Shown piece by piece: positions 17,418-27,191 of a stretch of DNA of 64,000 bases (the first letter of the stretch is position 1; every line of letters begins with the position of its first letter). Position numbers and translations under genes: made by a program. Below the pieces are notes generated by a model. That model saw only the letters and a list, made by a program, of their open reading frames with translations, was not told where the DNA came from and searched no databases. The stretch is from an uncultured Clostridia bacterium (lineage in GTDB: Bacteria > Bacillota > Clostridia > TANB77 > CAG-465), in contig CANRQA010000002.1 in NCBI GenBank assembly GCA_947632635.1, forward strand, positions 5-64,004. Direction: 5' to 3'.

Positions 17418-19112
17418 ATGTCAAGTTGCTTAGGTTTGTATATAAATAATGAAATAGTTAAATATGCTAAATTGTCTTATGAAAATAAAAAGATAACTTT
17501 GGAGCATTTTGGAACTAGATTTGTAAAATTTGATAATATGAAAGTTATAGAAGAAATTATTGAAGAAACTAACTCTCAAAGTACAGCTATAGCTATAAAC
17601 CCTGGTAATAGTACTTTTGTAAATATTCAGATTTTTGACCAAGGTCAAGTGAAATCATATCTTGCAGATATTGCAAAAATGGAATTTGAGGCTTGGTGCG
17701 AAAAAAATGCAAAATCACCAGCAAATAATTTATTTGTGTATAAAGTGGCGGACGTAAAAGGCGACGATGGTAAAAAGAGTGCAGTATTAAATATAGCAGA
17801 AAAAAAGTCTATTAGTGAGTATACTGAAACTTTTTCAAATAGACTTGCATCAGTGTATTCTCCAGCTTTTGTCATTGAAAGACTTGTACCCGAGGATGAG
17901 CGAAATTGTGCTGTAGTAAATTTTGATGAAAATCTTACTATTACAATTATGCTCGATGGAAACGTAGTTGATATAAAAAGTTTTGATATAGGTATGAAAA
18001 AAATATTATCAGATTTTACTGAAAAGTTAGGTTCATACCAAAAATCATATGAAGCTTGCAAACAGATTAATGTATATTCTGAAGGCGAAGACAATAATAA
18101 CAAAGAATTAGAATTTATACTTGAACCAACTTTACAAGATATATTAAAATATGTACAAGCAAATGTAAATAATTATAGAAAACAAATATCAAAGGTATTT
18201 ATTGCTGGTAGTGGTGTAGTATTTACAAATTTAGATATATTGTTTACTGAATATTTAGAGATCAAATCGGAGCTTCTAAAACCAGATTTTTTAGATGATA
18301 CAAGTAATGTTAGAAATGTTGCTGATATTGTTGAATCAATTGAAGCAATTGCACTTGCATATGATGCCTTAGTACCTATAAAAAGGGAAAGTGAATTTGT
18401 AAAAAGTGCAAAAATGAAGAACTCATTTAGAGGGATTTTCTCAAAAAAATCAACAAAAGTTAAACCAGTAAAGCAAAAGAAAGAAAAAGCTTTTGATAAT
18501 GGTGGTTTGAAAGTAAACGAAAATGAAGCAAAACCTGAAAAAGAAATTGAAGTAGAAGATTTTAGCAAGACAACTTCTATTGTTACATGTGTAGCGATTA
18601 TATTGTTTGTTTTACTTATTGCTTATGTAACATTTACTAATATATATACTAATAAATTGACAAATATGAAAAATGAAGTACTTGATAATATTGCTAAACT
18701 AAATTCAAATACAGCTACTGTTAAACAAGATACAGCATATATAACTGAAAATACAGCAAAGTACAAAGAAATAAATGATAGAGTATCTACTATCGTTAGG
18801 CAGATTGAAAGTAATCAGATTGGAAAGTTTTCAACATATAATGTTGCGTCATTTATGCAAAATATAATTAAAATAATACCAAAGAATGTGCAACTTGTTA
18901 ATATAAGTTCTGATGATAACAAGAATATAAAAATTAAAGCAAAGTCTGACAGATATGCTGATTTGGGATATTTTGTATCTATACTTAAAATAAATAATGT
19001 TTTAAAAAATATAAAAATTAATAGCGTACAAAATGCTACAACATCAAGAATTGAACAAAGTGGCGCAAACAATGTGTTAACAACAATAGAAATAGGTGGT
19101 GAGTTACCATGA
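17418..19112 (+). CDS. pilM: Type IV pilus assembly protein PilM-PilN fusion
   Basis: The N-terminal ~330 aa look like an actin-like PilM. Then a Lys-rich linker, one TM (TSIVTCVAIILFVLLIAYV) and a PilN-like periplasmic part. A PilMN fusion is known in Clostridioides difficile. Confidence 0.7.
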   Translation: MSSCLGLYINNEIVKYAKLSYENKKITLEHFGTRFVKFDNMKVIEEIIEETNSQSTAIAINPGNSTFVNIQIFDQGQVKSYLADIAKMEFEAWCEKNAKSPANNLFVYKVADVKGDDGKKSAVLNIAEKKSISEYTETFSNRLASVYSPAFVIERLVPEDERNCAVVNFDENLTITIMLDGNVVDIKSFDIGMKKILSDFTEKLGSYQKSYEACKQINVYSEGEDNNNKELEFILEPTLQDILKYVQANVNNYRKQISKVFIAGSGVVFTNLDILFTEYLEIKSELLKPDFLDDTSNVRNVADIVESIEAIALAYDALVPIKRESEFVKSAKMKNSFRGIFSKKSTKVKPVKQKKEKAFDNGGLKVNENEAKPEKEIEVEDFSKTTSIVTCVAIILFVLLIAYVTFTNIYTNKLTNMKNEVLDNIAKLNSNTATVKQDTAYITENTAKYKEINDRVSTIVRQIESNQIGKFSTYNVASFMQNIIKIIPKNVQLVNISSDDNKNIKIKAKSDRYADLGYFVSILKINNVLKNIKINSVQNATTSRIEQSGANNVLTTIEIGGELP

Positions 19113-19804
19113 TGTCGGAAAATACAAAAAAAGTATTAATAGTAACATTAATATCATTAATACTTGCATCGTTAATTGCTGTTTCAATGACAATGGACGT
19201 TAATTTGATAGTATTTAAATTAACATCAATAAAATCTTTGCTTGCACAGAGGCAAGACCTTATAGCAACGCAAGCAAAACTTACGGAAGCTGAAAAATTA
19301 TATGATAATGCAATTAATGAAAACTCAACCGAGCAAACCAACTTTACTAGTGAAAAGAAAAGATATGAAGCAATTAGCGATGAAACAATTAAAACTGTAA
19401 AAGAGGCAACTACTCAAGATAATTATAGCATTGAATACATGTGGATAAGACTTGGCAATTATGCAACAGCAAATAATTTAACAATTGCTATAGCAGACCC
19501 TGGTAGTACAATACCAGAAAGTAAGAATAAAAGTGAGGATGAGAATGTACCGACACAAGAGACTGTTACAACATCTAGTGATTCTACTTCTGAGACAAAG
19601 TCAGATGCTGATACGCAAACAGATACTGAAACATTGTTTTCCATTCGTGTTTCAGGCAGTTATTTAAATATAGCTGATTTTATATTTGATGTTGAAAATG
19701 ATGATGAATTAAGGTTTAAACTTGATAATATATCGATGGAATATCTATCAGGGACTTCAATAACAGCTAAGTTTAATGTGAAAAACTTAATTATTAAGAA
19801 ATAA
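19109..19804 (+). CDS. pilO: PilO-like type IV pilus biogenesis protein
   Basis: Overlapping start (ATGA). N-terminal TM plus coiled coil. Position after pilMN. Confidence 0.55.
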   Translation: MMSENTKKVLIVTLISLILASLIAVSMTMDVNLIVFKLTSIKSLLAQRQDLIATQAKLTEAEKLYDNAINENSTEQTNFTSEKKRYEAISDETIKTVKEATTQDNYSIEYMWIRLGNYATANNLTIAIADPGSTIPESKNKSEDENVPTQETVTTSSDSTSETKSDADTQTDTETLFSIRVSGSYLNIADFIFDVENDDELRFKLDNISMEYLSGTSITAKFNVKNLIIKK

Positions 19805-20220: not shown

Positions 20221-20763
20221 TTGAGTCAAGGCAATATAAATGAAATAAACGATGTACAAACAAAGCAAACACACAAAAATTTAAAAAATAATATAATAAT
20301 TTTTGAGTTTTTAATAATAATTGCACTTACTATTTTCATACTTTTTAGTACAATAAAAAGTGATTCTGATTTGAAAAAGGAGGAATTACTTACAACAATT
20401 ATTAATGTACAAGACAATTTATCTTATTATTTAGGAAAAATGAGTGCTGATACTTTTTCATTGTATAGTAACACTGAGATATTATTAGGAAAAAAAGAAG
20501 AAACAGGTGAGGATATTGTGGCTACTGATGAGGATAAAATTGAACCACTTGTTGATGTAGCAACAAAAACTCAAAAAGGTGAAAAGGTGGCATATAAAAT
20601 AATTACTCAGAATATGATAAAAACACTAAAAATTGATATACCAGATATGCAAGGTATAACTTTGTATATTCAAGATGGCTCAAAAGTTAAAGTAAGTTTT
20701 AATACTACTAAGCCATCATGGTGGACAACTGATTTTGATTTCCTAATTTTAGGAAATAACTAA
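20221..20763 (+). CDS. Membrane-anchored hypothetical protein in the T4P cluster
   Basis: TTG start 7 nt after AAGGAGAG; one TM (IIIFEFLIIIALTIFILF). Confidence 0.5.
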   Translation: MSQGNINEINDVQTKQTHKNLKNNIIIFEFLIIIALTIFILFSTIKSDSDLKKEELLTTIINVQDNLSYYLGKMSADTFSLYSNTEILLGKKEETGEDIVATDEDKIEPLVDVATKTQKGEKVAYKIITQNMIKTLKIDIPDMQGITLYIQDGSKVKVSFNTTKPSWWTTDFDFLILGNN

Positions 20764-20832: not shown

Positions 20833-21402
20833 ATGAAAAATTCTAAAAAAGGTATTTCTTTAATCGTATTAGTTATAACAATAATAGTTATAATTATTCT
20901 TGCAGCAGCTGTGTTATTATCTTTAAACGCTAATAACCCAATTTCAAATGCAAAACAAGCAACTTTCGACAGTGATGTTGATAATGTAAGATCTGCTATA
21001 AACCTATATATAGGAGACTTTATGGCAAAAAATCCTGTACATGAAGGACCATTTGATCCGAACGAAAAAACTGGTAAAGTTTGGATCTATGTAGGTGAAG
21101 GTGGAACTCAATCAGCAGAATATCCAAAAGATGACGCAAAAACTGAAGAAGAACTTGCTAATGAGGCTACAACATATGGCGACCAAGTAACTTGGGAAGA
21201 TTTAGGCTTATCTGGAAAACCAAATTCAATAAAAGCAATTGCATATAACTGTAAAACTTGTGCAATATGTGCAATACCTGCTCAAGGAGGAGTAGAATAC
21301 ACATTTAGACTTACTGCTGATGCAGAGGAGGCTACAACTGTAAAGAATACTGATGACTTAGCAACAGTTATTGGAAGTCTGTTCTATACACCAGCTGATT
21401 AA
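20833..21402 (+). CDS. Pilin-like protein with non-canonical class III signal (no Phe+1, no Glu+5)
   Basis: Strong SD AAGGAGGAAG. MKNSKKG/ISLIVLVITIIVIIILAAAVLL followed by a globular domain containing CKTCAICA. Followed by a hairpin. Confidence 0.6.
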   Translation: MKNSKKGISLIVLVITIIVIIILAAAVLLSLNANNPISNAKQATFDSDVDNVRSAINLYIGDFMAKNPVHEGPFDPNEKTGKVWIYVGEGGTQSAEYPKDDAKTEEELANEATTYGDQVTWEDLGLSGKPNSIKAIAYNCKTCAICAIPAQGGVEYTFRLTADAEEATTVKNTDDLATVIGSLFYTPAD

Positions 21403-21467: not shown

Positions 21468-21501
21468 AAAGACATATATGCTAATGTGTGTATATGTCTT
21501 T
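21468..21501 (+). terminator. Hairpin after the pilin-like gene (partial terminator/attenuator?)
   Basis: AAAGACATATA-N12-TATATGTCTTT; the T-run is weak. Confidence 0.35.
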
Positions 21502-21587
21502 CCCACTATAATATAAATTATATATATTTTGGAGTAAATAACTATTATATATTGCAAAATGTATATAAATGCTAGGAGGGAGAGATA

Positions 21588-22391
21588 GTGGAAATTTATA
21601 TAAATATTTTCATCATGTTTTGTATGTTTGTAATGGGCTCACTATTTGGAAGTTTCTTTTCACTTGCAACATATAGAATACCAAGACATCAAGATATAGT
21701 TAAAACAAGGTCATATTGCCCAAACTGTAAACATCGCTTAGAATTTTTTGACCTTATTCCAATACTTAGTTTTATAATTCGTGGTGGAAAATGCAAATAT
21801 TGTAAAGAGAAAATAAGCTTAAGATATCCATTACTTGAGATTACAAATGGAGTAGTATTTTTAGTATTTTACTTTATCTTTGGATATACTTTAAATTTAT
21901 TTTTAATATGTATAACATATGCTATTTTATTCGTACTTATTGGCTCTAGATTAATGTCAAAAAAAATGACAGATGAAGAAAAGATTGAGGTACAAGAATT
22001 AAAATTATCATCAAAAAAAGGTGTATTTGTAATAGAACTTGTAGTAGCTTTAATTATATTTACTGTATATGTAGCTTCTGCTTTAATTATTGTTAGAAAC
22101 AGTACTAAAAAAGGTGCTGAACTAATTGCAAGAGGAAACGCTATAACAGTTGCAGTTAGTGCAATGGAACAAGCACTATCAAAAACATACGATGAGCTAT
22201 ATTCTAGTAGCTCTTCTTCAACTGGCTCAAACAACATTATATATGATGTAACTACTGATGTTACCAAATATTCAGACATAGATTTAACAAAAAAAGATTT
22301 AGTAAAAATTATACAAGTAAATGTAAAATATATGTATAATGGTAATTCATATGATTTTACTTTAAAAACTTTAAAAGGTAAGGAGATATAA
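21588..22391 (+). CDS. Prepilin-peptidase N-terminal (DiS-P-DiS) domain fused in frame to a canonical pilin-like domain; A24 peptidase domain absent
   Basis: GTG start behind AGGAGGG. CPNCKHRL...CKYCKEKISLRYPLLEI is typical of the PilD N-domain. No Asp-containing A24 TM core follows. From aa ~127: MTDEEKIEVQELKLSSKKG/VFVIELVVALIIF (Gly-1, Glu+5). Confidence 0.65.
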   Translation: MEIYINIFIMFCMFVMGSLFGSFFSLATYRIPRHQDIVKTRSYCPNCKHRLEFFDLIPILSFIIRGGKCKYCKEKISLRYPLLEITNGVVFLVFYFIFGYTLNLFLICITYAILFVLIGSRLMSKKMTDEEKIEVQELKLSSKKGVFVIELVVALIIFTVYVASALIIVRNSTKKGAELIARGNAITVAVSAMEQALSKTYDELYSSSSSSTGSNNIIYDVTTDVTKYSDIDLTKKDLVKIIQVNVKYMYNGNSYDFTLKTLKGKEI

Positions 22392-22394
22392 CTT

Positions 22395-22820
22395 ATGAAT
22401 AAATCAGGAATTACAATGGCATCTCTTGTAATATATGTAGTATTATTCTTTGCTTTTTCAACATTTGCTATTTCAATAAGTAGTAATATGAACTATTCTA
22501 CTTTATCAGAAAAAGGCGATTTGTGGGTAAATGAACAATATGAAAAATTACAATATAACTTACTAAAAAGTGCAAAAGCAAGTGATGAAGTATATAGCAT
22601 ATCAGGAAAATTAATATTTTCAAATAATGACGAATATTTCTATGATACTCAAAAGAATCAAATACTTAAAAATGGTGGAGTTATTGCAAGTGATGTAAAT
22701 GGTATATTTGAAATTACTGCAAATGGCAAAAATTGTACAGTTAATGTTTCTTTTTTAAAATATGAAAAAACAAAAACAGGAGATATATTTGTAACTGTGG
22801 GAGATGATATAGATGAGTAA
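22395..22820 (+). CDS. Minor pilin-like protein (non-canonical signal)
   Basis: MNKSG/ITMASLVIYVVLFFAF; 141 aa; SD AAGGAGA. Confidence 0.45.
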   Translation: MNKSGITMASLVIYVVLFFAFSTFAISISSNMNYSTLSEKGDLWVNEQYEKLQYNLLKSAKASDEVYSISGKLIFSNNDEYFYDTQKNQILKNGGVIASDVNGIFEITANGKNCTVNVSFLKYEKTKTGDIFVTVGDDIDE

Positions 22821-23034
22821 AAAAATAAAAAAAAGACTAGTAGGTTCTGGTACACTTGTTGTAATATTTTCTGCTATAGCATTTTCCATATATGCAGTAT
22901 CAACTTTTGCAGAGCAAGAACATTATGGTATAATGCAAGACAAATATGAAAAAAATATAATAGAAGAGTATGAAAAAAATGTAGATAATATAGAAGAATA
23001 TTACGATAAACTTTTAGAAAAAAACAATTTTTAA
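22813..23034 (+). CDS. Small membrane-anchored protein (pilin-like N-terminus?)
   Basis: MSKKIKKRLVGSG/TLVVIFSAIAFSIYAV; 73 aa; overlapping start. Confidence 0.4.
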   Translation: MSKKIKKRLVGSGTLVVIFSAIAFSIYAVSTFAEQEHYGIMQDKYEKNIIEEYEKNVDNIEEYYDKLLEKNNF

Positions 23035-23070: not shown

Positions 23071-24708
23071 ATGTTTGAAAATGTAAGAGCAAAAAAAAGC
23101 CCTATAGGTGTTGAGTTTATAAAGAAAGGATTACTTACTGACTCACAAGTTGACAGAGTACTTGAGTATCAAAGAGACCATAAAGATTTAAAATTTGCAG
23201 AAATAGTTGATATTCTTGATATGTGTGATAAGAAAAAATTACTTGATGTATTAGCAGATAAAATTCAAGTTCCACCTGCCATGCTTGACGGTGAACTTGA
23301 TGTAAATCCGGTTGAATTTTTACCAAGAGATGTTATAATAAATTATAAAGCCATACCATTTTCTTTAGATGGTAATACATTAAGCATTGCATTTTCTGAT
23401 CCACAAGATGTTGATAGAATAAAAGAAATAGAATTATTACTTATGAATAAAGGCTTTGAAATGGAAATATATGTCACTTTATATACAAGTATAATGAGGC
23501 AAATATCAACTATTAGAACTGTTGAAACACAATTTGTTGATAAACAAGAGAAAGATATTTCTAAGCTTATTGATAATATAATAATGACAGCTATTGAAAA
23601 AAGAGCAAGTGATATACATGTAGAACCAATGGAAGATAAGATTAGAATAAGATTTAGAATTGATGGAGAACTTTTAACAATAACAGAACTTCCAAAGAAA
23701 AGACAAGATGTTATTATAGGAAGACTAAAATCAATATCTAATATGCACCAAGAAATTATTTACGACCAAGATGGTAGTATAGATACATATGAAAATTATA
23801 GTATTCGTGTATCTACACAGAAAAATGTTAATGGAGAAAAATTCGTATTAAGATTATTAAAAAGAAATGAAGAGTCAAGGGATTTATTTGAACTTGGTTT
23901 TAAAAGAGATGATGAACTTGTAGATAGAGCATTTAATAAAAGAAATAGTATTGTATTATGCTGTGCGCCAACAGGTGAGGGTAAAACTACTACATTATAT
24001 AGTGCAATAGAATACCTTGATAGACCAGAAATAAATATAATTTCTATTGAAAACCCAGTTGAACGTAGACTACCAGGTGTTAACCAAGTTGAAATTGGTC
24101 CAAATGTTACTTTTGCTTCTGCACTTAGAACAGTTTTAAGACAAGATCCTGATATAGTATTTGTTGGAGAAATAAGAGACGAGGAAACTGCAAAAGTAGC
24201 AATAGAAGCTGGTCAAACAGGACATTTAGTATTAAGTACTTTACACACTATTGATTCTATTGAAGCTATAACAAGAATAAGAAAAATGGGAATATCAGAT
24301 TATGACGTATCTGCAACTCTTGTTACAACCCTTTCACAAAGATTAGTAAGAAGACTATGTGAAAAGTGTAAAAAGCCACATAAATTAACTGATGAAGAAA
24401 GAAAGTATATAGAAAAAGCAACCAAATTAACAGGAGTAGAATTTGATTTAGACAATGCTACTTTGTATGAGCCAAAGGGTTGCGAATATTGTAATGATGT
24501 TGGATATTTTGACAGAATTGGTATTTTTGAAGTATTGTGCTTTGATGAATACATAAAAGAAATGATTGCCGATGGAAGATCAAGTATTGATATAAGGAAA
24601 TATGCAATGGAAAATACAGATTATAAGCCACTAGTGGTAGATGGGATAAATAAAGTACTAAGTGGAATAACAACAATAAGTGAATTAAAGAGAAAAATAA
24701 CTGTGTAA
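23071..24708 (+). CDS. pilB: Type IV pilus assembly ATPase PilB (GspE family)
   Basis: N-terminal T2SSE_N-like domain. Walker A APTGEGKTTT, Walker B DPDIVFVGEIRD, His box GHLVLSTLHT, tetracysteine CEKC..CEYC. Confidence 0.9.
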   Translation: MFENVRAKKSPIGVEFIKKGLLTDSQVDRVLEYQRDHKDLKFAEIVDILDMCDKKKLLDVLADKIQVPPAMLDGELDVNPVEFLPRDVIINYKAIPFSLDGNTLSIAFSDPQDVDRIKEIELLLMNKGFEMEIYVTLYTSIMRQISTIRTVETQFVDKQEKDISKLIDNIIMTAIEKRASDIHVEPMEDKIRIRFRIDGELLTITELPKKRQDVIIGRLKSISNMHQEIIYDQDGSIDTYENYSIRVSTQKNVNGEKFVLRLLKRNEESRDLFELGFKRDDELVDRAFNKRNSIVLCCAPTGEGKTTTLYSAIEYLDRPEINIISIENPVERRLPGVNQVEIGPNVTFASALRTVLRQDPDIVFVGEIRDEETAKVAIEAGQTGHLVLSTLHTIDSIEAITRIRKMGISDYDVSATLVTTLSQRLVRRLCEKCKKPHKLTDEERKYIEKATKLTGVEFDLDNATLYEPKGCEYCNDVGYFDRIGIFEVLCFDEYIKEMIADGRSSIDIRKYAMENTDYKPLVVDGINKVLSGITTISELKRKITV

Positions 24709-24731
24709 TATTATTTAAGGAAGGAAGATAT

Positions 24732-25832
24732 ATGGAGTTTTTAGATTCAATTTTAGCAAAAGCCGTAAGTTTAACTGCAACCGATGTACATTTGATAGTA
24801 GATCAATATCCTATATACAGGATTAATAGAAAACTTGAATATGATAATACTAAATTACCTATTAGCGCCGAGGTTTTAAGATCAATATTAGGTTTTTTCT
24901 TTGAGAGAAAGCCATCTATAAAAACAGATTTAGAACAATATAAGCAATTGGATTTATCGTATACATATGATAAGACAAGATTTAGAATTAATATTTCTTT
25001 TTCGAAGGGAATACCAGTATTTTCTATAAGAGTTATTCCTAATGGGGAAATTGATATAGACAAATTTGGATTAAGAGATATAGTTCAAAAGATGATGAGA
25101 GTAAAAAGTGGTATGATACTTGTAACGGGGAAAGTTAATTCAGGTAAATCTACGACAATGAATGCTTTTATTCAAGAAGTAAATAAGGTGGCAAATAAAA
25201 AAATTGTTACTCTCGAAGAACCGATTGAATACGAACATATATCTGATAAGTCTGTAATTATTCAAAAAGAAATAGGAAAACAATCAGATGTAGTTGACTA
25301 TTATAGTGGACTTATTAATTTGCTAAGAGAAGACGCAGATATTGCTGTTCTGGGAGAAATTAGAGATAGAAAGACAATGAATGTTGCTATAGACCTTGCC
25401 GAAACAGGTGGACTTGTTATAGGAACATTACATACACGTTCTTGTGGCGAAACATTAGAAAGAATAGTTGCAATGTATGATTCACAAGATCAGCTTGCTA
25501 TAAAAAATTCAGTCTCAAATATACTAAAAATGGTTATATCGCAAAAATTGGTAGTTGGGACAAAGGGTAAATTATTGATGGTCCCTGAAATAATGGTGGT
25601 AAATAGTACTATTGCTGCGCAAATAAGACAAGAAAAGTTTAGCGTATCAGATATAGAAGATTCAATACATACTTCAAAAGACAGTGGTTCACTTAGCTAT
25701 GAATTCTCATTTGCAGATTTATATCTAAAAGGTCTTGTGGACATGGAAACAATTAAGGAAAATATTGAACCTAACAGACTTGATATAATAAAAGGAAATA
25801 TAATAAGTTTTGGTGGAAAAGTAGAAGATTAA
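24732..25832 (+). CDS. pilT: Twitching-motility retraction ATPase PilT
   Basis: Walker A GKVNSGKSTT, DADIAVLGEIRD, GGLVIGTLHT; 366 aa. Confidence 0.85.
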   Translation: MEFLDSILAKAVSLTATDVHLIVDQYPIYRINRKLEYDNTKLPISAEVLRSILGFFFERKPSIKTDLEQYKQLDLSYTYDKTRFRINISFSKGIPVFSIRVIPNGEIDIDKFGLRDIVQKMMRVKSGMILVTGKVNSGKSTTMNAFIQEVNKVANKKIVTLEEPIEYEHISDKSVIIQKEIGKQSDVVDYYSGLINLLREDADIAVLGEIRDRKTMNVAIDLAETGGLVIGTLHTRSCGETLERIVAMYDSQDQLAIKNSVSNILKMVISQKLVVGTKGKLLMVPEIMVVNSTIAAQIRQEKFSVSDIEDSIHTSKDSGSLSYEFSFADLYLKGLVDMETIKENIEPNRLDIIKGNIISFGGKVED

Positions 25833-25844
25833 TGGAGGTATAGT

Positions 25845-27191
25845 ATGCCAAATTATAGATATAGAGTTCTCTTAGAAAATGGACAAATAAGACGTGGAAA
25901 AATTGTTGCAACTGACAAAGCTCAAGCAATTGACAGATTAAAAAGTATTAATAGTCAGCCTATCTATATAAAACGAGTAAGTAAATTGAGAAAAAAATAT
26001 AAAGTATTTAGCTTTAATAGACTTGAAAGATTAAGTAGGCAATCAGCTACACGTACCTTAAATGATATAAGAAAGACCAAAAAAAGAAAAATTAACTTAA
26101 AAGAAATGACTGTTTCTGACTTTAAAGCTCTATTAACACCAATAAAAGCAAACGATATAATAACATTTGTAAATAACTTTTATATATTAAAAAGGGCTAA
26201 ATTTACAAATGTGCAAGCTTTGCAATCTATCTTTGATGGTACAGAAAATCAAAAAATGAAATATATTGTTGAAGATTTACTTATAGGAGCACAAGCAGGT
26301 GAAAGAATACATAAGTTGATGGAAGCTTATCCTAGAGTATTTAATCCAATGTTTGTTAACTTTATACGTGTTGGTGAAGAATCAGGTAATTTGGATACAG
26401 CATTATTGTATGCTAGAGATTATGTTGAAAGCTCAATAAAGTTGAAAAAGAAAATAAGGAGTACGGTGATACCTAGAGTCCTTCAATTTGTAATTATTAT
26501 GATTTTGATGTTTGTTACATTATTAATAGGTGTTCCATTACTTGAAGATGTGTATGAAATGTTTGACTCCACACAAGAAATTCCAAAAGCTACAATGTTT
26601 GCACTCGATATAGCAAAGTGGATCGTGTCTAATTGGTTTATTATACTATTAGTAGTTGGAATTTTAGTAATATCATTTATACTGTATATAAATACTTCTA
26701 GAGGAAGGTTTAATTGGGACAAATTTAAACTTACTTGCCCAGTTGTAGGACCACTTATAACTAATATAACAATTAGTAAATTTTTTAAAGCAATGTTACT
26801 AAATTTAAGGAATGGTATGAGAATACAAGAAAGTCTTGAAGTTTCGAAAAATGTTACAAATAATTATTATTTCTTATCAATAGTTGAAACAGGTAAGGCA
26901 TTAGCTGCAGGTGGCGGTTCATGGATGGAACCATTTGAGCAAAAGAAAATATTTAGACCAATGGTAAGGGAAATGATTGGAATAGGTATGCAAACAGATT
27001 TGGCAGATATGATGGATAAGGTTAATGAATATATAGAAATGCAAATCGATGAATCAATAGGAAGATTTGTAAAAGCACTTCCAGATATAACATATGCGTT
27101 AGTTGGTGTTGCTTTAATTGCTTTTGTTATAACAGTTATGGTACCTTTAACTAATATGTACATGGGTGGATTTATTGATATGCCTAAATAA
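25845..27191 (+). CDS. pilC: Type IV pilus platform protein PilC (GspF family)
   Basis: 448 aa. Two GspF-like repeats with 3 TM segments. Position after pilB/pilT. Confidence 0.8.
   Translation: MPNYRYRVLLENGQIRRGKIVATDKAQAIDRLKSINSQPIYIKRVSKLRKKYKVFSFNRLERLSRQSATRTLNDIRKTKKRKINLKEMTVSDFKALLTPIKANDIITFVNNFYILKRAKFTNVQALQSIFDGTENQKMKYIVEDLLIGAQAGERIHKLMEAYPRVFNPMFVNFIRVGEESGNLDTALLYARDYVESSIKLKKKIRSTVIPRVLQFVIIMILMFVTLLIGVPLLEDVYEMFDSTQEIPKATMFALDIAKWIVSNWFIILLVVGILVISFILYINTSRGRFNWDKFKLTCPVVGPLITNITISKFFKAMLLNLRNGMRIQESLEVSKNVTNNYYFLSIVETGKALAAGGGSWMEPFEQKKIFRPMVREMIGIGMQTDLADMMDKVNEYIEMQIDESIGRFVKALPDITYALVGVALIAFVITVMVPLTNMYMGGFIDMPK

Follow-up and report, generated by a model that had tools for sequence, protein, structure and literature searches.

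Can a type IV prepilin peptidase lose its protease and end up as the leader peptide of its own substrate? The question is raised by one open reading frame (ORF) in the 64,000-nucleotide stretch of contig CANRQA010000002.1 from an uncultured Clostridia bacterium (assembly GCA_947632635.1) that was analysed here, hereafter the window. The ORF lies in a type IV pilus cluster, begins like the prepilin peptidase PilD and ends like a minor pilin (Table 1). A sequence-only reading had left two explanations side by side: a deletion that joined what was left of PilD to a minor pilin gene, so that the cluster would need a PilD from another locus, or a genuine bifunctional or tethered protein. The comparisons described below indicate that the gene encodes a conserved two-module membrane protein.

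The N-terminal module corresponds to the first half of PilD. In a Pfam scan of the 267-amino acid (aa) product, the A24_N domain PF06750 was matched with an E-value of 6.7e-30 and a score of 103 bits, against a cut-off of 23. The zinc finger has the spacing CxxC-x21-CxxC, and the residues C44, C47, C69, and C72 are invariant together with K68 in an alignment of 30 homologs, as are K143, G145, and E150 further downstream. The RYPLLEI motif is also retained, and the full-length AlphaFold2 (AF2) model places helices at residues 79-98 and 102-125. A BLASTP comparison with the canonical PilD of a sister family showed 42% identity through the first transmembrane helix (TM1), the zinc-finger loop, TM2, and TM3. 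The similarity ends at the first catalytic aspartate (Asp1), where ..FVLIGS-RLM in the fusion stands opposite ..FIIAGI-DKE in PilD. Both the assignment of residues 1 to about 120 to the PilD N-terminal domain and the end of the resemblance at Asp1 had been proposed in the sequence-only reading, and both agree with these results. No match to PF01478 (Peptidase_A24) was found in the fusion protein at E<=0.1, and GxGD was not found anywhere in its 267 residues. With both catalytic Asp residues missing, the protein cannot act as a peptidase, although public records label such proteins "prepilin peptidase".

The frame runs on, free of stops, from A24_N through a linker into a class III signal. The signal and the N-terminal part of the pilin helix (alpha1N) read KKG145/VFVIE150LVVALIIFTVYVASALIIV, where the slash marks the predicted cleavage site, with Lys-rich residues just before the Gly as in ordinary leaders. 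Three predicted TM helices lie in the 144 residues ahead of the site, and the leader differs from the short, positively charged N-terminal leader of about 5-30 aa that is expected of a type IV pilin. A search of 5.8 billion proteins returned 535 homologs, and among the 120 of these that were listed, Gly at position -1 is present in 120, Val at +1 in 117, and Glu at +5 in 118, which rules out a chance origin of the signal. More distant fusions have Asp instead of Glu at +5. In an alignment of 56 fused and free pilins, Gly-1 is the sole invariant column. In the 21 fusion loci for which it was measured, the linker ranges from about 9 to about 50 aa, and some database homologs have longer insertions. 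An internal start at M123 or M127 was considered and rejected: no motif resembling a Shine-Dalgarno (SD) sequence precedes either codon in this genome, as had been noted earlier for the continuation of the frame, only weak and sporadic ones are found in relatives, and M127 is missing in some members. Likewise rejected was a derivation of KKGVFVIELVV from TM4 of PilD, hinted at by a BLASTP match to PNGLILYELIV in genome G036, since the Glu is not kept in other canonical PilDs and the C-terminal half is homologous from end to end with free pilins.

By inspection, the structural models fit the pilin-like body that had been recognised downstream of the signal, with the lollipop fold in which a long N-terminal helix packs on an antiparallel sheet. 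The C-terminal half alone (56 sequences) was modelled by AF2 with a mean predicted local distance difference test (pLDDT) score of 93.5 as a 55-residue helix (residues 8-62) followed by four strands. The full-length model (30-sequence alignment, pLDDT 83.5) contains three TM helices with a loop between TM1 and TM2, a short linker helix, the 55-residue helix, and four strands, and the C-terminal half has the same topology as when modelled alone. The NCBIfam models for GspI (E 1.7e-4) and ComGE (5e-5) were matched by the C-terminal half below their curated cut-offs (TIGR01707 and NF041013; 22.1 bits versus 44.35 and 23.2 bits versus 49), which is a resemblance only. Pilins ranked first in a profile search of PDB sequences, where they aligned over alpha1N only (E 8e-4).

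The 120 listed homologs share a single architecture of about 255-299 aa, with PF06750 as the only domain, 93-100% query coverage, and 47-70% identity, and the single-frame form recurs, at 37-70% identity, in dozens of species whose genomes were assembled independently. Named records come from metagenome-assembled genomes (MAGs) of uncultured gut Clostridia from human, rabbit, and chicken, including Clostridium sp. CAG:921 and CAG:1219. To place the gene within its own GTDB family (f1), 79 species genomes from six genera were examined. A match was present in 60 genomes, and it was full-length and in a single frame in 56 of these, from five of the six genera; in genus g14, the sole representative copy is the frameshifted one of genome G074. 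Members of f1 without a match also had no A24_N match of any kind.

The ratio of nonsynonymous to synonymous substitutions (dN/dS) was estimated by the Nei-Gojobori method for eight pairs of loci. For the A24_N half it was 0.05-0.24, with saturation of synonymous sites in two of the eight pairs. For the pilin half, six pairs out of eight gave 0.12-0.45. Higher values for the pilin half were obtained for L012/L013 (0.73, with 0.88 for the pilin head) and for the pilin head of L044/L045 (0.59). In the least saturated pair (dS about 0.2), the ratio was 0.16 for A24_N and 0.12 for the pilin. These values and the distribution of the matches indicate a gene that is conserved throughout the family with both halves under purifying selection, rather than a one-off deletion scar. 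The second of the two original explanations, a genuine protein, is upheld by this conservation and selection as far as function is concerned, and the product may either stay tethered as a whole or be cut at G145.

Two further explanations bear on the integrity of the frame. The linker contains a run of eight A (21959-21966), and the copy in G074 is frameshifted at such a run, as might be expected if the ORF were a pseudogene, the functionless scar of a deletion, or an artefact of assembly or frameshifting. Such an origin is extremely unlikely: the same single-frame architecture recurs in the independently assembled species, dN/dS is well below 1 for A24_N in every estimable pair and for the pilin in six of eight, and the gene has no stops and a strong SD. 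Runs of 6-10 A are in fact present in the linker of every fusion locus, so slippage could in principle toggle between the fusion and a truncated protein with A24_N only, switching the minor pilin on and off, and the copy in G074 is out of frame exactly at such a run. We regard such a phase-variable switch as very improbable, because the use of AAA for Lys where the genome is AT-rich is enough to produce A-runs, 56 of the 60 assemblies are in frame, and the positions of the runs are not conserved.

The origin of the fusion can be read from a sister family, f5, which has the same cluster order with a pilin, a canonical PilD of 270-277 aa, and a minor pilin of 151-166 aa. In one example (L007), both Pfam domains of PilD were confirmed. 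The minor pilin of f5 has the N-terminus G/YS(L/M)(I/L/V)E and ends in ..TLKTLK... A pairwise BLASTP of the C-terminal half of the fusion against the f5 minor pilin gave no significant result, but a profile of this half compared by hhalign with the pilins directly 3' of PilD-like genes in 58 related loci gave a probability of 99.4% and an E-value of 4e-21 over 128 columns. A phmmer search of 1.8 billion representative sequences with the C-terminal half retrieved both fused proteins and free pilins of 120-141 aa with short leaders. Since the gene order in the sister family, the homology of the C-terminal half, and the end of the PilD similarity at Asp1 all coincide, the fusion is best described as PilD minus its protease core plus the next gene. 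The comparison indicates that it arose by loss of the A24 core, with the remnant joining the gene downstream, and that the event took place at the base, or close to it, of a GTDB family whose members are gut Clostridia with small genomes.

As history, the deletion proposed in the sequence-only reading is therefore borne out: in sister families, the corresponding slot is occupied by a full PilD, after which comes a minor pilin with homology to the C-terminal half, and the only A24 domain of the genome is on another contig. As a simple scar, it is not. Separate intact pilD and pilin genes at this position in relatives, combined with a lack of expression of the ORF in this genome, had been named as the signs of a mere scar; relatives do have the separate genes, but the verdict does not follow, given that the fusion is family-wide and under purifying selection.

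Loss of the protease is not restricted to the fusion. We classified 96 related PilD-like genes with custom hidden Markov models and the two catalytic columns. Only six are canonical PilDs with Asp1 and GxGD, while 64 are full-length proteins with a strong A24_N but no GxGD, here called protease-degenerate. The remainder comprises the 21 fusions, including the one in the window, four stand-alone A24_N ORFs of 117-134 aa in the pilus clusters of family f3, and one A24_N ORF separated from its pilin, in genome G020. Inspection by column of 69 full-length proteins showed Asp1 only in 50 and neither Asp in 13, and many have YP[IV][DE][IV]L at the GxGD position. Two protease-degenerate proteins that were scanned with Pfam, L009 and L051, match PF06750 but not PF01478, and in genomes of the sister families f2 and f4, the PilD encoded in the cluster contained no PF01478 match. 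An acidic residue often stands beside the lost GxGD, and some residual protease activity may be retained in this class. Whether the form is fused, free, or protease-dead, A24_N scores about 100-125 bits against PF06750, and a free A24_N ORF reached 126 bits. In an unrooted A24_N tree of about 129 columns, the 21 fusions, the G020 ORF, and the four f3 ORFs fall on one side of a branch with support 100/89. The fusion may have a single origin. The protease was probably lost from A24_N more than once, giving rise to the pilin fusion, the free ORF, and the protease-dead PilDs.

Two of these classes deserve a separate description. Most in-cluster PilDs of loci L009-L011, L032, and L051-L113 (f2, f4, and many gut Clostridia MAGs, for example Clostridium sp. 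CAG:440) lack GxGD, and these proteins of normal length appear to be protease-dead and "methylase-only". The free A24_N ORFs of f3 (L003, 1396-1764, minus strand; L004; L005, 1435-1839, plus strand; L006) end directly after TM3. They sit between canonical G/FTLVE pilins and pilM, and the A24 peptidases of those genomes are on other contigs.

A clean split of the fusion was found in just one of the 60 matching genomes, G020, which belongs to the same genus as the genome studied here. At its locus (L031, 3429-4387), the A24_N ORF ends in ..KSKMTESEKKELEKRLKK-stop and overlaps the start of the pilin gene in ATGA. The free pilin is 136 aa long, begins MNNNKKLSKNSG/VFISE.., and has an AAGAGG SD upstream of its start. 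This looks like the same gene pair in the form of two translationally coupled genes, and the fused and split forms look equivalent. In G074 (L115, 780-1000, minus strand), a frameshift of one nucleotide is located at a run of six A immediately before KKG/LAATE, and it may be an assembly error, a pseudogene, or slippage.

If the fusion protein cannot cleave prepilins, another enzyme is needed to do so. The genome is a draft MAG of 1.59 Mb in 98 contigs and 92.8% complete. A genome-wide search for the A24 domain, as proposed earlier, gave a single PF01478 match, on contig C17 and unlinked to the pilus cluster, and the single PF06750 match is the fusion ORF itself. The C17 peptidase is 247 aa long, contains both Asp motifs (VDARYRLIPDE and GMGFGDVK), and adjoins housekeeping genes. 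It has no zinc finger, with no Cys in its first 100 residues. It is present in 40 of 41 related genomes, including congeners without a pilus cluster, and in all 13 congeners with A24_N. As judged from the gene content, leader cleavage in this genome could come only from this A24-only enzyme. That two PilD paralogs degenerated in complementary ways was considered and rejected, since an hhalign comparison of the N-terminus of the C17 peptidase with A24_N was not significant (probability 1.8%).

The topology of the fusion protein was predicted from the positive-inside charge distribution and the AF2 helices. TM1 is predicted to run from the outside to the inside, the zinc finger to be cytoplasmic, and TM2 and TM3 to bring the chain back to the cytoplasmic side. 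This would put the linker and the KKG/ site at the cytoplasmic face, with the pilin helix crossing outward and the head outside, and this predicted arrangement is that of a prepilin awaiting processing. We consider it fairly probable that the unlinked peptidase cuts after G145, with the whole PilD remnant serving as a 145-residue leader, and that cleavage would release a three-TM A24_N protein together with a mature GspI/ComGE-like minor pilin, which would join the pilus priming or tip complex. Gly-1 is required for prepilin cleavage and Glu+5 serves filament packing, and because both are kept in fused and free forms, cleavage at G145 is in our view the most likely fate of the protein. We suggest more tentatively, with somewhat less than even confidence, that the fusion is a self-resolving polyprotein, functionally equal to two translationally coupled genes, in which an enzyme serves as leader to the very pilin on which it acts and the freed leader would be the long-sought autonomous pilin N-methyltransferase, as the free and protease-degenerate forms presumably are. 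Such a stand-alone three-TM methylase may act on V146 of the pilin to which it had been joined, and perhaps on further pilins. The A24_N domain (IPR010627) has been assigned the N-methylation of pilins, dependent on S-adenosylmethionine (SAM) and zinc (PMC10191384, PMC4471445).

Several points weigh against cleavage followed by methylation. The unlinked peptidase might serve a different set of substrates; the genome also encodes a possible Flp-like locus and 33 proteins with G/ISLIVLI.. N-termini, described below. Foldseek searches of the PDB gave no significant match for the full-length model or the C-terminal half (best pilin match 7o5y_D at E 0.78); the search was uninformative, and the pilin fold rests on the AF2 topology and on sequence homology. 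The Pfam N_methyl motif failed to score on the fusion protein. Furthermore, no prepilin leader of about 145 residues with TM helices is known to be processed. Were the fusion neutral because it is cleaved, fission might be expected more often, and the single clean fission among 60 genomes hints that the covalent link itself may be favored.

The last two points would be accommodated by the main rival explanation, an uncleaved, tethered bifunctional protein in which the pilin helix and head act as a fourth TM helix and docking module. The tether could place the methylase at the assembly site, for example in the minor-pilin priming complex or beside PilC, or provide a built-in pseudo-substrate. 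The retention of the fusion in 56 of 60 genomes suggests that the link may matter, and the full-length AF2 model is confident as a single chain. Nevertheless, we find this unlikely. An uncleaved anchor needs neither Gly-1 nor Glu+5, and yet the residue that is essential for cleavage is the sole invariant column; G020 encodes the halves separately, and the linker is of low complexity and highly variable in length, as for a disposable spacer.

The identity of the freed module is the other point of doubt. The methylase assignment of IPR010627 is described as "very likely" but not formally shown (PMC10191384, PMC4471445), and it "remains to be formally demonstrated" (PMC4471445). A24_N also has no recognisable SAM-binding fold, and most pilins of the cluster and of the genome lack Glu+5 and Phe+1, so that their N-terminal chemistry may differ from that of the model systems. 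The domain could instead be a zinc-ribbon membrane scaffold or chaperone that serves in prepilin recognition, hand-over to the peptidase, or regulation. We judge this role to be quite improbable, given that the four cysteines and the G-K-C motif are invariant in the fusion family and that A24_N is kept at full Pfam strength in the fused, free, and protease-dead forms. In PilD of P. aeruginosa, moreover, methylation needs bound zinc but cleavage does not, according to Aly et al. 2013 as cited in PMC10191384.

The fusion shares features with several known systems but is identical to none of them. As in the PilD/GspO/XcpA/ComC peptidases (MEROPS A24A; PF06750 and PF01478), there is a TM1, a four-Cys zinc finger with G-K-C, a TM2, and a TM3, and the gene belongs to a type IV pilus cluster, where it takes the slot that pilD has in the sister families. 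Unlike them, it lacks the whole A24 aspartic protease domain with both Asp residues, has four predicted TM helices rather than eight, and ends in a pilin. Prepilin peptidases that consist of the peptidase only (TadV type) are textbook knowledge, and the TadV/CpaA/FppA enzymes, which have no methylase domain, illustrate that the two activities of PilD are separable; the 247-aa peptidase of this genome is of this kind. They represent the peptidase half alone, whereas the fusion is the reciprocal case, with the presumed methylase half alone.

The pilin half resembles GspI, PilV (PilI), and ComGE in several respects: its class III signal carries Gly-1 and Glu+5, its mature part is about 120 residues long, a long alpha1 helix and a small four-stranded sheet are predicted for it, and it is located among other minor pilin genes. 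However, its "leader" contains 145 residues and three TM helices, as compared to 5-30 soluble residues. Modular type IV pilins, such as PilB and PilC of S. sanguinis, also combine a pilin and a functional module in one polypeptide, but their modules are C-terminal and displayed on the filament. The module of the fusion is N-terminal, polytopic, and ahead of the cleavage site, and because it is upstream of that site it could not enter the filament. No published methylase-only PilD was found in full-text literature searches, nor any fusion of a PilD N-terminal domain to a pilin, the latter in agreement with the sequence-only reading, although this is no proof of absence.

The N-methylation of pilins has been known for more than 40 years, and its function is still called a mystery (PMC10191384, PMC4471445). 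Two enzyme activities that usually go together in PilD have come apart naturally in this gene: the protease has been removed from A24_N, and the domain is still under strong constraint in every form. These forms offer small, ready-made constructs for studies of the solo function of the domain, and of methylation in trans after the cut by a separate peptidase. If cleavage at G145 is true, it would broaden the notion of a class III signal peptide. If the freed leader is also the methylase, this would be the first such signal peptide with a polytopic functional leader, and nature would for the first time have provided proof that IPR010627 needs no other domain for the methylase activity.

Table 1. 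Features of the fusion gene and of the surrounding pilus cluster, in window coordinates (slash, predicted cleavage site)
Feature	Position	Strand	Remark
PilMN fusion (564 aa) and PilO-like ORF (231 aa)	17418..19804	+	Position matches relatives
Upstream pilin, 189 aa, MKNSKKG/ISLIV.., no Glu+5	20833..21402	+	Syntenic with pilins 5' of PilD in sister families
SD sequence AGGAGG	21574..21579	+	8 nt 5' of the GTG start, read from sequence
Whole fusion ORF (A24_N module, linker, minor pilin)	21588..22391	+	GTG start, 267 aa and stop
PF06750 (A24_N_bact), residues 15-97	21630..21878	+	End of TM1, cytoplasmic zinc-finger loop, start of TM2
CxxC pair C44-C47	21717-21728	+	
CxxC pair C69-C72, preceded by GGK68C motif	21792-21803	+	
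TM2 and TM3 of the PilD-derived module, residues 79-120	21822..21947	+	Ends ..FVLIGS, canonical PilD Asp1 position
Lys/Glu-rich linker or giant-leader tail, R121-K144, predicted cytoplasmic	21948..22019	+	Alignment, linker table
Class III cleavage motif G145/V146-F-V-I-E150 (Gly-1, Glu+5)	22020..22037	+	
Predicted mature minor pilin V146-I267, 122 aa	22023..22388	+	Alpha1 helix and 4-stranded sheet, GspI/ComGE-like
Two pilin-like ORFs, 141 aa G/ITMAS (from 22395) and 73 aa G/TLVVI (from 22813)	22395..23034	+	8-nt overlap
PilB (T2SSE and MshEN), PilT (T2SSE), PilC (T2SSF x2)	23071..27191	+	Pfam

The surrounding cluster contains the only type IV filament motor set of the genome, as identified by a whole-genome tblastn search. 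The PilN part of the PilMN fusion was matched in Pfam with an E-value of 1.4e-4 and 22.2 bits, just below the gathering cut-off of 22.8 bits. The upstream pilin is likely to be the major pilin, and both pilin-like ORFs downstream are syntenic with ORFs 3' of the minor pilin in the sister families. Among the prepilins of the cluster, Glu+5 is found only in the fusion, as had been claimed, and its three neighbors begin G/ISLIV (20833), G/ITMAS (22395), and G/TLVVI (22813). A further ORF of 180 aa (20221-20763) has a long polar N-terminus followed by ..KNN/IIIFEFLIIIALTIF, which is hydrophobic with Glu at the fifth position but no preceding Gly, and it may encode a degenerate or uncleavable pilin-like protein.

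The 33 ORFs mentioned above share the near-identical start K-G/ISLIVLI(V/I)TI(A/V)VIIIL.., with Gly-1 but Val at +5. They comprise the upstream pilin in the window (20833-21402) and 32 others (for example C14:26685, C38:5271, and C38:7795, and on contigs C35, C9, and C7), and their bodies range from about 190 to 795 aa, one of which is rich in leucine-rich repeats. Many lie at the ends of contigs, as though the assembly had been interrupted by their repeated 5' ends. These ORFs may represent a large substrate family of the unlinked A24-only peptidase, and if so, this would explain why the peptidase is retained in congeners without a pilus cluster.

Contig C14 also contains a possible Flp/Tad-like locus (L114, 2835-7255). 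It encodes a 57-aa ORF, MKNKRNG/SALAE.., with a sub-threshold match to Flp1_like (E 2e-4), a polytopic 270-aa ORF, and two small TadE-like ORFs whose N-termini read G/S.. and G/ET... Within the stretch read, the locus showed no ATPase.

A promoter and terminator scan around the fusion gene was uninformative. In the 185-bp gap between the upstream pilin gene and the fusion gene, there is an AT-rich inverted repeat (21468-21501) with 11-bp arms, AAAGACATATA..TATATGTCTTT, a loop of 12 nucleotides, and no T-run, which might attenuate read-through from the major pilin gene.

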